Source: a virus
Taxonomy: Duplodnaviria; Heunggongvirae; Uroviricota; Caudoviricetes
Virus record (IMG/VR): IMGVR_UViG_2778261644_000009
Reading direction: 5' to 3' (one strand)
DNA length: 7,869 nucleotides
In this document: one piece after another, positions 1 to 5,618 of the stretch
How the letters are laid out: every line of letters begins with the position of its first letter
How positions within the stretch are numbered: the first letter of the stretch is position 1
The notes under the pieces: generated by a model
What the model saw: the letters and a program-made list of their open reading frames with translations, nothing else
Database searches by the model: none
Told to the model about the DNA's origin: nothing
Program-made: the position numbers and the translations under genes

Positions 1-12
1 AATTAGCTACCA

Positions 13-144
13 CCACAGAATTCTGTTAATCTTAACTTTTAAAGAGATTTGTACCCAAACAAAAGTCTGTTACCCCACCTATACAGAAAACTGTTAGATT
101 CAACCACAGAAAACTGTTAGACACCCCCACAGAATTCTGTTACC
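13..144. repeat. Array of five direct repeats (iterons), each with a 12-bp internal dyad ACAGAAnnCTGT followed by TA; putative initiator-binding sites of a replication origin
   Basis: Dyads at 15-26 (ACAGAATTCTGT), 59-70 (ACAAAAGTCTGT, degenerate), 83-94 and 106-117 (ACAGAAAACTGT), 129-140 (ACAGAATTCTGT); each preceded by a C-rich stretch; centres 20.5, 64.5, 88.5, 111.5, 134.5, i.e. 22-24 bp or multiples (about two helical turns). Window starts inside or just before the array, so it may extend upstream. Confidence 0.6.
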
Positions 145-148
145 TATT

Positions 149-206
149 AGATCATTTATTAAATTACTTATTAAATTATAATATTATATATTTATTTATA
201 TGATCT
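149..206. promoter_or_regulatory. AT-rich block, putative DNA-unwinding element of the origin
   Basis: About 46 bp of almost pure A/T (155-200) immediately after the iterons, flanked by inverted 6-mers AGATCA (149-154) and TGATCT (201-206), each with a GATC site; tandem TTATTAAATTA at 156-166 and 168-178. Confidence 0.4.
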
Positions 207-1546: not shown

Positions 1547-1565
1547 AGAATAGAAGGAGAAAACT

Positions 1566-1733
1566 ATGAGCGAAACTAAGAAACCAATTCCGCGCACTTA
1601 CCTACACGTTGACCCTGAAATCTTCAAGGTTTTATTTGCTGAAGCCAAGAAAAGGCAAATTATGGTCAGTGATTTGATGTTAGAAATCATTACTGAAGCA
1701 GCAGAGAACATCAAACAAAAAAAGGGTAAGTGA
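1566..1733 (+). CDS. Putative ribbon-helix-helix (CopG/Arc/MetJ-like) DNA-binding protein, 55 aa; absent from the supplied ORF track
   Basis: ATG 1566 with SD AAGGAG (1554-1559); translation MSETKKPIPRTYLHVDPEIFKVLFAEAKKRQIMVSDLMLEIITEAAENIKQKKGK; strand-like RTYLHVDPEIF followed by two amphipathic helices, the RHH pattern; stop TGA 1731-1733. Confidence 0.5.
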   Translation: MSETKKPIPRTYLHVDPEIFKVLFAEAKKRQIMVSDLMLEIITEAAENIKQKKGK

Positions 1734-1784
1734 TCCTCATTCACTTTAGTAGCGCATTAAGCGTGATTTATAAGGAGATTTTTA

Positions 1785-2438
1785 ATGATTAATGAAGAAC
1801 AATTTGTAAAAGTTCCTATGTGGATTCTAAAAATAAGCCAAGTAAACGGGCATAAATTTACAGATAGTGCTAAAAACCTTTACTGCTATCTGAAAGGGTT
1901 TGATCGTGCATTTCCCTCTTACGCTAAGATAGGCGATGTTTTTGGCATAACACCAAGAGCAGCAGAGGAAAGGGTTAAGAAATTGCTCGAAATGGGATTA
2001 ATTATAAAAGATGCACGACCAGGAAGTTCTAATGTCTATCAAGTGGTAGATATTCCACAAGAAGAAGCTAGACAAGAAGCCCAGACACAACAAGAAGCTA
2101 CTGTTAAAGCTGTTCCTGATCAGCTTCCCCCTACGGAAGATAATAAAGAGTCTTCTTTTGATGTTCTTGATGATTGGGATGCGCCTTTGCCGTGGGAGAC
2201 GGAAGAAACACCTGTTTCATCAAGTGAAAAAGTAGCTAATGATAATGAGGAGGATGTGTTAGAGAATTTTGCCTCTCTTATCTGCCAGCAGAAACACACC
2301 AGAACAGGAGGGGCATCATTTATTGAGTTTGCAAATTCACTAGCTTATAGATACGGGCTAAAGCTACCAAATGGTATTGAGGCATATTTTTCTAAGCATT
2401 ACCCAAATGTGTATGATGACTTTGATATTCCATTTTAA
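1785..2438 (+). CDS. Putative replication initiator / replisome organiser: N-terminal winged helix-turn-helix, acidic linker, C-terminus ending DDFDIPF (SSB C-terminal-tip-like)
   Basis: SD AAGGAG (1772-1777) 7 nt before ATG. N-terminal pattern LYCYLKGF...PSYAKIGDVFGITPRAAEERVKKLLEMGLII typical of phage/plasmid initiator wHTH; acidic stretch PQEEARQEAQTQQEA...; last seven codons (2415-2435) encode D-D-F-D-I-P-F, cf. E. coli SSB ...DFDDDIPF. Confidence 0.8.
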   Translation: MINEEQFVKVPMWILKISQVNGHKFTDSAKNLYCYLKGFDRAFPSYAKIGDVFGITPRAAEERVKKLLEMGLIIKDARPGSSNVYQVVDIPQEEARQEAQTQQEATVKAVPDQLPPTEDNKESSFDVLDDWDAPLPWETEETPVSSSEKVANDNEEDVLENFASLICQQKHTRTGGASFIEFANSLAYRYGLKLPNGIEAYFSKHYPNVYDDFDIPF

Positions 2439-2767: not shown

Positions 2768-2884
2768 ATGATAGTAGCTATGTATTGGTTATTGTTCTTC
2801 CTCACGTTAGAAACATACTTTGGGGTGTTTTCCTTTAAAAGAAAAGGAAAAGTAAATGGCAAAAAGAAAAAACAACGTTGTTAA
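2768..2884 (+). CDS. Possible small hydrophobic peptide (38 aa); uncertain, may be spurious
   Basis: ATG 2768 about 10 nt after AAGGA (2753-2757); translation MIVAMYWLLFFLTLETYFGVFSFKRKGKVNGKKKKQRC; overlaps the start of the next gene in another frame; basic tail comes from A-rich sequence. Confidence 0.2.
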   Translation: MIVAMYWLLFFLTLETYFGVFSFKRKGKVNGKKKKQRC

Positions 2885-3266
2885 GAAAATCGGTGATTCA
2901 GCTTCTCTTCTAAGTAAACCTAAATCTATTCTAAGACGTAAAGATTTTAAAGAGCTAGTTACGCTCACCAAGCAAAATAGCGCCCCTGGCGAATGGAAAA
3001 CAGAGATCATAGAACATTCTCCCTCTGTGCCTTGTGGAGATGAATATATCGCATTACAAGAAATCTTATCTTCAACACCTGGTGTATTCTGGAAACCTAG
3101 AAAAAGAAAAGAGTATATCGTTGATAGCTCTGATTTGCGCAAATACCAGATTTTAGGATTTGAAGATTATAATCACTACGTCGGTTATCTCGCCACCAAT
3201 GGCCTAAATAATTTAGTTCCTGAATTCCAAATTCTATGTAATGCTGATCACTATGGAGACTTTTAA
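2856..3266 (+). CDS. Hypothetical protein (136 aa) with basic N-terminus; function unknown
   Basis: ATG 2856 after AAGGAAAAG; N-terminus MAKRKNNVVKK...; stop TAA 3264-3266 is 1 nt before the next start. Confidence 0.65.
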   Translation: MAKRKNNVVKKIGDSASLLSKPKSILRRKDFKELVTLTKQNSAPGEWKTEIIEHSPSVPCGDEYIALQEILSSTPGVFWKPRKRKEYIVDSSDLRKYQILGFEDYNHYVGYLATNGLNNLVPEFQILCNADHYGDF

Positions 3267-3267
3267 T

Positions 3268-3603
3268 ATGAACAAAAACACGTATGACACAATTTACTCA
3301 CTAATTAATTATTATGAGGATGATTACCTCCTGCCTTTAAACCGCGCTGAACTTGAAGCATACAAAGAAAACACGCCAGCGGCACTAAATGAGGCGTTTA
3401 AACACTGGGATTTAGCTGTGAATGCCTTTGAGCACCTCTCTAAGCGTGTAGAGATGCTCTGTAAGCGCGAAAACGCATATCTGACAGCCGATCAGGTATG
3501 GGAGCTATCAAACTGGATAGAAGATATTGAATCGGACGTTCGCTATGTAGGAGACGGACTTGTTGAACTAGCTCAACGCTTAGGCGCTATCACAGAAGAA
3601 TAA
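3268..3603 (+). CDS. Hypothetical acidic protein (111 aa from ATG 3268); function unknown
   Basis: Track starts this frame at 3241, but ATG 3268 has SD GGAGA (3255-3259) 8 nt upstream and sits 1 nt after the upstream stop; upstream in-frame ATGs lack an SD. Confidence 0.65.
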   Translation: MNKNTYDTIYSLINYYEDDYLLPLNRAELEAYKENTPAALNEAFKHWDLAVNAFEHLSKRVEMLCKRENAYLTADQVWELSNWIEDIESDVRYVGDGLVELAQRLGAITEE

Positions 3604-3632
3604 AAAAAGCAACAAAAAAGTTGTAAAATATC

Positions 3633-3661
3633 TTGACATTTCATCTATTGTATGTTAATAT
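3633..3661 (+). promoter_or_regulatory. Strong sigma70-type promoter with extended -10, upstream of the structural-looking gene block
   Basis: TTGACA (3633-3638), 17-bp spacer, TG at 3653-3654, TAATAT (3656-3661); a perfect TATAAT overlaps at 3659-3664; no ORF for about 280 nt downstream. Confidence 0.55.
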
Positions 3662-3792
3662 AATTATATAGGGTGATTATTTTTCCTTTATTGGTTCGAT
3701 ATTAAAAATTCTTCTTGTCGTTAAAGGGGAGTAAAATCTCCGCTCCCCGCTTCTCCTCCTCCTTAAGTGTCATTATTACCTCTTTTTTCCTT

Positions 3793-3824
3793 TGTTATGC
3801 ATACATCTTGGAGTATGCATAACA
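3793..3824. repeat. Perfect 12-bp inverted repeat TGTTATGCATAC / GTATGCATAACA with 8-nt spacer
   Basis: 3793-3804 is the exact reverse complement of 3813-3824; loop ATCTTGGA (3805-3812); no flanking U-tract on either strand, so not a terminator. Confidence 0.6.
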
Positions 3825-3852
3825 TAGGGTAATTACATAGGTACAAGTTAAT

Positions 3853-3884
3853 AAAAGGCGGCTTTAAATGCTGCCTTTTATTTT
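3853..3884 (+). terminator. Rho-independent terminator between the promoter at 3633 and the downstream genes
   Basis: Stem GGCGGC (3857-3862) / GCTGCC (3870-3875), one G-U pair, loop TTTAAAT, then TTTTATTTT (3876-3884); A-tract 3853-3856 upstream. Confidence 0.55.
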
Positions 3885-3946
3885 GCCCGTTATGCAACTT
3901 AAAAGTTGTATTTCTTACTTTAAACAAGGTAACAAGGTTTATATAA

Positions 3947-4159
3947 ATGTTGTTTTTAAATGATAAAGAGCAAATCATCAAGTATCGCGATGAAATGCTA
4001 AAGATCAATCCACAAATTACCGAAATGGTAGCTAAATACGCTGGGTGTTCTGTCGAAGAAGTGGAACGTTGTGTTGAAAAATATTTTTCTCCTTCTTCTC
4101 CGTCTACACCTTCCCTTAATGAATTAATCAAATTAAAAGCTAAGGAGATTACTAAATGA
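3947..4159 (+). CDS. Small hypothetical protein (70 aa)
   Basis: ATG 3947 with weak SD AAGG (3934-3937); stop TGA overlaps the next start (ATGA at 4156-4159). Confidence 0.5.
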   Translation: MLFLNDKEQIIKYRDEMLKINPQITEMVAKYAGCSVEEVERCVEKYFSPSSPSTPSLNELIKLKAKEITK

Positions 4160-4518
4160 TTATTGATTTAGACACTCTTTTTCCAAGTCGAAAGACTTTC
4201 ACAGATATTGTAAGTTATTGTACTGATCCGTTTGCCTCTGTAGAAAACAAGGTTTTTGCTTCTCTTCCTGCTGATGTTGAATGCGGAGACTTGATCACCA
4301 GCACTGGCGCTAAATATGAATCAGGAGATGATATCTATGTTGTTATGAGTGAATTTTTAACGGCTGGAGCAAATAAGCCTGTAGATGTTTTACGTAGCAA
4401 TGCTGGGCTTGTATGCATTAAAGCTGATGCGCTGAATGCTGTAAGTGAAGCAGCAAAAACAGCCTTAATTAAAAAAGGCTTCCAGCTTGAAGGCTTTAAT
4501 ACGGTTTTCACTTCTTAA
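4156..4518 (+). CDS. Hypothetical protein (120 aa); possible small virion accessory (decoration/scaffold-like) by position only
   Basis: SD AAGGAG (4142-4147) 8 nt before ATG 4156; coupled to the upstream gene; immediately precedes the 342-aa gene. No diagnostic motif. Confidence 0.7.
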   Translation: MIIDLDTLFPSRKTFTDIVSYCTDPFASVENKVFASLPADVECGDLITSTGAKYESGDDIYVVMSEFLTAGANKPVDVLRSNAGLVCIKADALNAVSEAAKTALIKKGFQLEGFNTVFTS

Positions 4519-4536: not shown

Positions 4537-5565
4537 ATGATTCTAGGTAATGATTACGTTGATTTAGCTCCTCTGTTCTCTGCGCATAGCACTAGAAACT
4601 ATCTGCTTTCTACTCTCGACTTCACTGATCCGGTGGGCGTTAGTTCTCATAAAGTAGCTGTTTCCCAGCTTGTCGAAAGCAACGAATCTCTGTTCAACAA
4701 AGAAACCTCTCGTTTCTCTTCTGAACACAACGTTACTAAGCGAGAACAAGGTAAAGAATGGCTGATCGAGATCCCTTACTTCCTGCGTGAAGATGTGATC
4801 CGTCCTTCTGATGTTCAAGGCAAACGTAAACCTGGCACTGATTTCCAGGAAACACTCACTGATATCTACGCGGAATATGTTGCTAAACACAATGTTGCAT
4901 TCCAGCGTACAAAAGAGAGCGTGTTGGCGGCTTCTTTGTTCTCTGGCAAAACTTACACGCCTAAAACTGATGATGTTCTTATCGAATGGGGCAAGCTGTT
5001 TAACGTATCAGCTATGAAAGCCACTGTGAACGCTTCCAGCACTGACACCACGAAGATTTTTAAAGAATTTGATCAGATTGCTACTGACATTATCGAAAAA
5101 GCACAAAGCCAGGCGGCTGCTGTAGAGCGTATTGTTGTTTTCTGTAAGCCGGAAGCATTCTCTGCAATTCGATTCTCTGCGGGTATGGCAAACGCATTCC
5201 AGTATGTAAGCCCACTGGAAGAAGGGAACGTTGTGTACCAGCGTCGTGACCTGCTACCGGGGGTGACAGCGTTCACTATTCCAGGAACTAACATTGATGT
5301 TATTAAACTGGTAGATCCGCTACACCTTGCACATATGACCGCAGACGCTGTAGCGATTCCGAGGTTTGCTAAGGGGGCAGGTGTTTATGCCAACATCTTC
5401 GGGGCGGCTTCCAGCACCTTTGAACTGATTAATACCGCTCCTGCTGAGGTTTATAGCTATAGCTATGAATCTTCTCGTGGTGATGCTGTTAACGTTGTTA
5501 CAGAGAATAGCCAGATGGTTGTAAACCACGGCGTTGGCTTCTCCGTTCAAATCACTGTGAAATAA
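4537..5565 (+). CDS. Highly expressed 342-aa protein; putative major structural (capsid-like) protein, assignment tentative
   Basis: ATG 4537 after AAAGGA; codon usage visibly different from the AT-rich early genes (CTG, CGT, GGT/GGC, TCT, AAA, GAA, as in highly expressed enterobacterial genes); no signal peptide or nucleotide-binding motif; followed by the strongest terminator in the window. Confidence 0.85.
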   Translation: MILGNDYVDLAPLFSAHSTRNYLLSTLDFTDPVGVSSHKVAVSQLVESNESLFNKETSRFSSEHNVTKREQGKEWLIEIPYFLREDVIRPSDVQGKRKPGTDFQETLTDIYAEYVAKHNVAFQRTKESVLAASLFSGKTYTPKTDDVLIEWGKLFNVSAMKATVNASSTDTTKIFKEFDQIATDIIEKAQSQAAAVERIVVFCKPEAFSAIRFSAGMANAFQYVSPLEEGNVVYQRRDLLPGVTAFTIPGTNIDVIKLVDPLHLAHMTADAVAIPRFAKGAGVYANIFGAASSTFELINTAPAEVYSYSYESSRGDAVNVVTENSQMVVNHGVGFSVQITVK

Positions 5566-5583
5566 TATTTTAACGTGTAATAG

Positions 5584-5618
5584 AGGCGTGGCGTGTATTC
5601 ACGCTTCGCCTTTTTTTT
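5584..5618 (+). terminator. Strong rho-independent terminator after the 342-aa gene
   Basis: GC-rich stem 5584-5595 / 5600-5610 (about 11 bp, one bulge, two G-U pairs), loop TATT, then T8 (5611-5618). Confidence 0.75.

Follow-up and report, generated by a model that had tools for sequence, protein, structure and literature searches.

Introduction

In phage lambda the late genes lie behind a leader in which transcription from PR' gives the 6S RNA and stops at tR', with Q-dependent read-through carrying transcription into the late genes. In satellite P4 a structured CI RNA that derives from a leader controls the downstream genes, and it is represented in Rfam by the C4 antisense RNA family. Long hairpins are also found in phage mRNAs as RNase III sites, such as R1.1 of T7 and the site in the lambda N leader, which typically form a helix of ~20 bp or longer that is interrupted by an internal loop.

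The leader described here resembles the lambda PR'-tR' region in having a constitutive-looking sigma-70 promoter, a transcript of ~200 nt and an intrinsic terminator directly before late (morphogenesis) genes, all three being predictions. With the P4 immunity leader it shares its place in a satellite element, a constitutive promoter and an early-terminating transcript, and with phage RNase III sites it shares a long, near-perfect hairpin that lies in the untranslated part of a phage-type operon and has no U-tract. The hairpin is encoded by an exact palindrome that was first noticed in a sequence-only reading of this DNA. On balance we favor the view that the palindrome works as an RNA stem-loop within the termination or read-through module of the leader.

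Results

The island and its late operon

The window, by which we mean the whole 7,869-nucleotide stretch of IMG/VR record IMGVR_UViG_2778261644_000009 that was analyzed, can be read as part of an uncharacterized phage-satellite-like island of E. coli. The island is ~12 kb long and encodes a tyrosine integrase; its insertion site is either thrW or a LysR-family gene. Of 5,426 complete E. coli genomes, 742 contain parts of the window, with at least 80% of the window present in 195 of these, and the leader itself is present in 307 E. coli genomes. A scan of a genome collection with the capsid protein returned at least one near-identical locus. We found no description of the island, of a link to a helper, or of the palindrome or leader sequence strings in the literature.

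The late operon is encoded on the + strand and begins with a 70-aa ORF (3947-4159), which is followed by a 120-aa ORF (4156-4518) and by a gene for a lambda-gpE-like major capsid protein (4537-5565; PF03864, E = 9e-15). The order of these three genes is identical in all relatives. On the 3' side of the capsid gene the island encodes a tape-measure-like protein of 610 aa and carries a gene annotated as baseplate protein, and elsewhere it encodes an HTH/replication-initiator-like protein and several small unknown proteins. No portal, terminase or protease gene is present among the called ORFs and annotated features of the island, in whose annotation all genes but those for the integrase and the capsid protein are "hypothetical". 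We also observed a strong intrinsic terminator at 5583-5617, directly past the capsid gene and before a 67-aa ORF and the tape-measure-like gene. Because of this additional terminator, the late region is punctuated by at least two.

Several features lie outside the operon. Window positions 1554-2138 take in a 55-aa ORF together with the sequence for the N-terminal half of the HTH/Rep-like protein (217 aa). At the DNA level this segment shares 90-99% identity with virulent phages of the Stephanstirmvirinae (muut, inny, Mt1B1_P17 and BI-EHEC). This identity implies recent exchange and suggests that the island meets Stephanstirmvirinae phages in the same cells, and we regard this group as candidate helpers. 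A 136-aa protein (window 2856-3266) with a basic N-terminus (MAKRKNNVVKK...) is found across all island types at 32-54% identity. It corresponds to 387 database clusters, mostly from Klebsiella and all labeled hypothetical, and its AlphaFold2 model is poor (pLDDT 60, pTM 0.33). Searches of Pfam and PHROGs assigned no family to the small proteins of the island, including those of the ORFs upstream of the leader, and identified no read-through factor among them.

Apart from these genes, four iterons (CCACAGAAWWCTGTTA) are located at the left end of the window (1-200). In strain SA186 (L094:240-3835) the leftmost ~3.6 kb of the island has one 52-aa ORF as its sole annotated gene, an unusually large amount of non-coding DNA for a 12-kb element.

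The palindrome and hairpin P2

The palindrome consists of the arms TGTTATGCATAC (3793-3804) and GTATGCATAACA (3813-3824), which form an exact inverted repeat of 12 bp with 0 mismatches around an 8-nt loop, ATCTTGGA (3805-3812; AUCUUGGA as RNA). The sequence-only reading had claimed an exact 12-bp repeat with an N8 spacer at 3793-3824, and the sequence bears this out. With a repeat finder the arms reach 3789-3804 and 3813-3828, which gives 16 nt that are 94% complementary; the sole mismatch is a T/T (U.U in RNA) at 3792/3825, followed by 3 further pairs. We refer to the + strand hairpin at 3789-3828, with its 12-bp core, 8-nt loop, U.U mismatch and 3 outer pairs, as P2. The self-complementary octamer TATGCATA is contained in each arm, at 3796-3803 and at 3814-3821.

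The same reading had called the repeat unusually long for chance. The palindrome is indeed the only perfect stem of at least 12 bp with a 3-20 nt loop in the window, but such a stem was also held by 4 of 300 dinucleotide-preserving shuffles of the window. A chance origin is thus unlikely, though not extremely so. The stem is followed by UAGGGUAAUUAC on its 3' side on the + strand and by CAAAGGAAAAAAGAGG on its 3' side on the - strand. Because neither strand has a T-run after the stem, as judged both by reading the sequence and by a terminator scan in which the site is absent, the palindrome is not an intrinsic terminator, which agrees with what had been proposed from the sequence, and we rejected this candidate function.

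The non-coding gap in which the palindrome lies extends for 344 nt from the end of the upstream ORF at 3603 to the 70-aa ORF. A near-consensus sigma-70 promoter is predicted on the + strand at 3633-3661 (TTGACA, 17 bp, TG-n-TAATAT; 10/12 matches plus TG), with a predicted transcription start at ~3668, just 5' of AUAGGG. The predicted leader RNA of ~215 nt runs on the + strand from this promoter to a terminator (3668-3886), as judged from the consensus prediction and the fold. The 223-nt leader stretch folds with -65.9 kcal/mol (z = -6.1 vs shuffles), and its main helices are P1, P2 and the terminator. P1 (GGGGAGU / GCUCCCC; + strand, 3726-3748) contributes a fold of -12.2 kcal/mol and is followed by a pyrimidine-rich, G-poor single-stranded tract (CUCCUCCUCCUUAAG...; + strand, 3749-3788). 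The length of this tract differs among copies (diversity 0.084), as does its number of CUC repeats between strains.

The palindrome itself lies 125-155 nt past the predicted start, and 25 nt separate it from the intrinsic terminator on its 3' side. This terminator (+ strand, 3850-3886) is composed of AAUAAAAGGCGGC / GCUGCCUUUUAUU and then UUUG, and its hairpin at 3850-3882 folds with -17.4 kcal/mol; the terminator loop varies among copies (U to C) and the stem is kept. A consensus terminator scan omits this terminator, apparently because, with its A/U-extended stem, no more than 4 T remain for the tail window. Both neighbors between which the palindrome had been placed, a GGGGAG/CTCCCC hairpin at 3726-3748 and the terminator, were therefore found, and the context assumed for it (promoter, leader, terminator, then late genes) holds on consensus predictions. 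A promoter scan predicted no promoter between the terminator and the 70-aa ORF.

Past the terminator the fold contains a small + strand hairpin with one G.U pair, AUGCAAC-UUAAAA-GUUGUAU (3893-3912), which falls in the least variable part of the region (3887-3946). We also noticed that the inverted repeat GCAAC-N6-GTTGT occurs twice, at 3610-3625 just 5' of the -35 box and at 3895-3910 just past the terminator. In addition, the 5' end of the leader, (A)UAGGGUGA (3668-3676), pairs with UUUUGCCC (3884-3890) in the predicted folds of most of six natural variants. As UUUUGCCC sits just past the terminator, this pairing would form only in read-through transcripts.

As + strand RNA, P2 folds with -19.7 kcal/mol. 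Its 12 core pairs have a probability of at least 0.84 across the predicted folds of six natural leader variants, and no helices other than P1, P2 and the terminator are constant in all six. It is thus well supported that the palindrome is a very stable stem-loop of the leader RNA, situated between a strong promoter and an intrinsic terminator that precede the capsid operon. With respect to an alternative antiterminator pairing, we detected only a weak one (CCUCCUU / AAGG-C-GG) in one co-transcriptional folding intermediate.

Motif content also distinguishes the strands of the leader. CUCC/CCUC motifs occur 5-15 times per leader, compared with 0-4 GGAG/GAGG motifs at similar C and G content. 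These motifs resemble an anti-Shine-Dalgarno sequence, and CCUCC is located in hairpin loops of many relatives. The asymmetry between the strands fits selection on the transcript. Enrichment of anti-Shine-Dalgarno-like CUCC motifs could mean that the ~215-nt terminated transcript is itself the product, a trans-acting small RNA (e.g. an immunity or anti-helper RNA) in which P2 would serve as structural or target-recognition module. A strong promoter and a terminator do constitute a self-contained unit, and leader-derived CI RNA is used in this manner by P4 satellites. However, the arms of P2 have no complementary target beyond a chance-level 2-mismatch site at 4411-4422, there is no Rfam match of the C4/CI type, and the leader unit is always directly upstream of the late operon, for which no other promoter is predicted, a placement that fits control in cis. 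RNAduplex comparison of the leader with translation-start regions was uninformative. We consider a small RNA product quite improbable.

Natural variation of the leader

Variation among island copies was assessed in two samplings. The first comprised 21 leader copies with 18 distinct segments (from E. coli, an Escherichia sp. and IMG/VR contigs), and the second, made with a longer anchor, comprised 26 copies with 15 distinct long segments. In both samplings the 32 nt of the palindrome and its loop exhibit a single variable position, A3815G (GTATGC to GTGTGC), which is present in 8 of the 21 copies. In the aligned copies A3815G always occurs with a downstream 17-nt deletion, so it probably reflects a single event. 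By this change a U-A pair becomes U.G; on the + strand the hairpin has -19.7 kcal/mol with either allele, while the - strand hairpin loses 4.3 kcal/mol. In a second case, the variant with a 9-nt deletion (L038/L005) has U in place of C3789, which gives U.G with G3828. Both stem changes thus keep pairing only in + strand RNA. The P2 stem is variable at these two positions only, probably as a result of two mutational events, and two wobble-compatible changes out of two are statistically weak, with a chance of ~0.25 when counting transitions only.

The flanks of P2 are more labile, with a CU tract of varying length and deletions of 1, 9 and 17 nt, all of which leave the hairpin intact. Since copies that lack 17 nt between P2 and the terminator exist, the spacing of these two elements is not critical. 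Leader-peptide attenuation by an AUC-initiated frame through the stem was also considered and rejected, since the natural indels (+9, -3, +5 and +2 nt) break any frame.

Nucleotide diversity computed among the 15 distinct copies is 0.014 for P2, 0.016 for the 5' leader, 0.015 for the terminator and 0.007 for 3887-3946, compared with 0.055 for the upstream ORF, 0.030 for the 70-aa ORF, 0.038 for the 120-aa ORF and 0.077 for the capsid gene. Leader diversity is 2-5 times below that of the flanking genes, which indicates that the non-coding leader is constrained at least as much as the genes are. Within the leader, P2 does not stand out by higher conservation.

These patterns bear on the possibility that P2 is a passive structural insulator, a hairpin that locks up the stretch separating the pyrimidine tract from the terminator so that the terminator folds reliably and that has no specific partner. 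Such a role is in keeping with P1, P2 and the terminator being the only constant helices in the natural-variant folds, and with the tolerance of indels in the flanks. On the other hand, a stem with a merely structural role would not require an invariant loop and 12 invariant pairs, although the copies have diverged too little overall to decide this point, and loss of 17 nt between P2 and the terminator is accommodated. We think that a purely insulating function is improbable.

The A3815G allele is likewise informative about a second reading, in which the palindrome is an operator in DNA for a dimeric or tetrameric regulator, encoded by the island or by a helper phage, that possibly engages the two TATGCATA cores 18 bp apart. 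Once bound, the regulator might also form a roadblock to elongation into the late genes or loop the DNA. This allele, which is common, breaks the DNA symmetry inside a core and is neutral for RNA. The dyad is otherwise perfect over 12/12 bp with its two TATGCATA cores, the site including the loop or spacer is conserved among copies, and the island encodes at least one HTH protein (the 217-aa Rep-like protein is the only one that we found in it). GTATGCATAC pairs moreover flank a -10 box in an operator-like manner in unrelated IMG/VR phages (L077, L087). The palindrome is nevertheless located well past the predicted start, with no promoter predicted over it on either strand, and its 40-bp extent of symmetry is long for one operator. 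Related islands, furthermore, keep a hairpin at this position of the leader and not the palindrome sequence.

Searches for additional copies of the site were also negative. We found no further 11-nt half-site (1 mismatch allowed) and no further TATGCATA in the 12.8-kb locus L094 that spans the island, and the window contains no second half-site beyond the chance-level match at 4411-4422 noted above and no TATGCATA outside the two arms. BLAST against 50,697 phage and 72,556 plasmid records returned nothing beyond chance (E of 3 or more), either with the palindrome or with the leader, which leaves a cos/pac site shared with a helper, or a helper operator, without support. A scan of IMG/VR for TATGCATAC-N4-12-GTRTGCATA returned 12 island copies and 28 unrelated contexts; the latter number is about the chance estimate for a collection of this size, so the motif is not mobile or widespread. 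Taken together, these results give no support to the dimeric-regulator operator that had been suggested from the sequence: there is no predicted promoter at the site, no second half-site in the window or L094 and no copy in the phage and plasmid records searched. The palindrome is probably not a DNA operator, and we judge that role unlikely.

As a separate observation, the GTATGCATAC pairs at L077:4411-4439 and L087:12320-12345 are arranged around a TATAAT box that follows a TTGACA box, as repressor operators would be. Since such pairs flank the -10 box in these two phages, the core can act as an operator elsewhere, in an arrangement that is not comparable with the one described here.

Leaders of related islands

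Homologues of the 120-aa protein with ~60% identity are found in Citrobacter, Klebsiella, Kluyvera, Leclercia and Enterobacter, and diverged island types also exist within E. coli. In every related locus that was fetched, a near-consensus sigma-70 promoter lies directly 3' of the upstream ORF, followed by a non-coding stretch of 550-1000 nt that starts with (A)UAGGG and then by a terminator 50-100 nt before a ~70-aa ORF. The 344-nt gap of the window is the shortest version among these loci. Long leaders with one or two terminators each are located at L003:5789-6666, L004:6453-7187, L011:2072-2788, L014:2062-2785, L016:2135-2785, L019:2238-2785 and L049:909-1900, among others. In a plain MAFFT alignment of 17 long leaders, RNAalifold predicted 38 pairs, 17 of them with compensatory changes. 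The long leaders may thus represent an undescribed large structured RNA.

Just 5' of the last terminator the long leaders contain a hairpin, which we term hairpin A (UUAACAUCAU - loop - AUGACGUUAA), whose loop usually carries CCUCC. In a stem alignment of 10 types that was registered by hand with the structure in view, and that leans toward it, 89% of cells pair, 5 of 10 pairs exhibit changes on both sides, and the covariation score exceeds those of all 500 shuffles and all slid controls. RNAalifold on MAFFT alignments did not recover hairpin A because the right arms are misaligned. The pre-terminator hairpin is thus a feature of the family whose sequence is free to change.

The window leader resembles the long leaders in several respects. 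In the E. coli type L003, CCUCCUCUUUAAGUUCAU is followed by an 8-bp hairpin with one U.G and then by the terminator, an order that matches CCUCCUCCUUAAGUGUCAU, P2 and terminator in the window, and the motif CCUCCUC-UUAAGU of the window's pyrimidine tract is also common to L003. A pairwise alignment of L003 with the window leader is marginal (score 63, vs 40 +/- 8.5 for shuffles with a shuffle maximum of 65.5). From its position and this marginal alignment, P2 may be homologous to hairpin A of the relatives. By eye, P1 with its 5' flank UUCUUCUUGUCGUUAAAGG resembles a module of the long leaders that consists of GUUCCGAAGG, a GC-rich hairpin and CUCCU, and this 5' part of the leader (UUCUUCUUGUCGUUAAAGG, GC-rich hairpin, CUCCU...) looks homologous to that module.

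The earlier suggestion to weigh conservation of the palindrome against compensatory change therefore has a divided outcome: the palindrome is kept in the 26 island copies, where stem changes are of the wobble type, while in relatives its sequence is not kept and a hairpin is. A stable RNA hairpin in the leader, one of the functions originally envisaged, is favored by the predicted transcript, by U.G changes that are neutral on the + strand and by the compensatory hairpins of relatives.

Signals of a different type are found in the long leaders as well. BoxA-like 12-mers (up to 2 mismatches to GCUCUUUAACAA) occur in 14 of 26 leaders vs 1.1 expected in shuffles, and they lie 75-118 nt before the first ORF. 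They are located at L004:7106-7125, at equivalent positions in L053-L059 and L063, and in the loops of a hairpin B in L011, L056, L058 and L064. Leaders of the L004 type carry ACAAUCUGUGUG, which is identical to the boxC region of the rrnB leader (L095:287-298). These boxA/boxC-like motifs hint at Nus-factor antitermination in the long leaders.

The relatives also bear on RNase III processing, in which a cut at P2 would split the 5' leader from the read-through mRNA and would thereby govern how stable the late transcript is or how well it is translated, or would mature a small RNA. P2 is very stable, and its length and regularity fall within the range of bacterial RNase III substrates, with 16 bp certain and ~21 bp possible if a lower AUUAC/GUAAU stem pairs across a 9-nt bulge. 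The natural 9-nt deletion (L038) shortens this bulge, and by eye and in the L038 fold the extended pairing is still possible. The variants with a 1-nt deletion (L041 and L046) have a weaker lower stem, however, and the positional counterparts of P2 in relatives are 5-10 bp, which is too short for RNase III. We consider processing at P2 unlikely.

Discussion

The analysis shows that P2 exists, that it is very stable and conserved, that it tolerates only wobble-compatible changes and that it has positional counterparts in related islands. Transcription from the promoter, termination at the terminator and a docking role of P2 are what we infer from the sequence. In the model that we prefer, in which the palindrome acts as part of a termination or read-through module, P2 would be the apical stem-loop of a ~215-nt leader RNA made from a strong sigma-70 promoter. 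By default this RNA would end at the intrinsic terminator 25 nt downstream of P2. Because the leader would by default end before the operon, the capsid operon (70-aa ORF, 120-aa ORF and major capsid protein) would depend on read-through for its expression. P2 would dock or position a read-through factor, which could be a protein of the island, a protein of the helper phage or a host factor, and it would fix how the pyrimidine tract located 5' of it and the terminator's 5' arm located 3' of it lie relative to each other.

A broader proposal, which we put forward tentatively and regard as rather doubtful, is that the palindrome forms a helix in what would be the smallest representative of a so far undescribed family of large structured leader RNAs (~215 nt, vs 550-1000 nt in Klebsiella, Citrobacter, Leclercia and other E. 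coli) that gates the capsid operon of widespread, unannotated, satellite-like islands of enterobacteria. In such a scheme the RNA would be a switch that couples late read-through to infection by a virulent helper, possibly of the Stephanstirmvirinae, and the long forms may borrow host Nus-factor signals of the boxA/boxC-like type.

Taken by itself, a stable leader hairpin is nothing out of the ordinary, and the newer lead is the leader RNA family, which is large, structured and absent from Rfam and is found on a family of unannotated islands. The islands occur commonly in E. coli, EHEC-type genomes among them, as well as in Klebsiella. If the hairpin and leader gate read-through into the capsid genes, they would constitute a control point for when the island makes particles. 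How a satellite senses its helper is a key unknown for any phage satellite, and P2 would offer a concrete and easily mutated handle on this leader.

Among the described systems, the P4 immunity leader is close in setting and differs in content. We found no seqA/seqC-like repeats complementary to the P2 arms, and the genes behind the leader described here are capsid genes, unlike the replication genes of P4. An Rfam search with 3640-3950 alone at E up to 10 gave best scores of at most 21 bits vs gathering thresholds of 42-100 bits, and a search with the whole window together with L003 and L004 gave sub-threshold noise only. With no Rfam match, assignment to the P4 CI/C4 RNA family failed. Compared with typical RNase III sites, P2 has a certain helix of 16 bp, and ~21 bp would require the lower stem, whose pairing is weaker in part of the variants.

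Two antitermination systems provide further points of reference. As in the nut sites of lambda and P22 (boxA plus boxB, with N), a leader hairpin upstream of a terminator could recruit an antitermination factor, and the conserved 136-aa island protein with its basic N-terminus is a further nut-like aspect. In contrast to boxB, which has a 5-bp stem and a GNRA-like pentaloop, P2 has a stem of 12-16 bp and a loop of 8 nt. No match to boxA (CGCUCUUA / GCUCUUUAACAA) is present within 2 edits in 3601-3950, and Pfam and PHROGs revealed no N homologue in the island. With no such boxA and a stem far too long for boxB, a lambda-type nut site was rejected. The rrn leaders (boxB-boxA-boxC) find their closest parallel in the related long leaders, which have a hairpin before boxA-like motifs and in one type carry ACAAUCUGUGUG; the window leader differs in that it has no boxA/boxC-like motifs and its palindrome precedes the terminator with no boxA after it within the leader.

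In its architecture the leader described here would operate like the lambda late leader or a nut-type site. No Q homologue was detected upstream of the leader with Pfam or PHROGs, the 6S RNA of lambda has no counterpart of the 16-bp hairpin, and lambda Q acts through a DNA site at the promoter and not through a leader hairpin. The arrangement of a promoter, a short terminated transcript and late genes that characterizes PR'-tR' is, on the predictions made here, present in this island.
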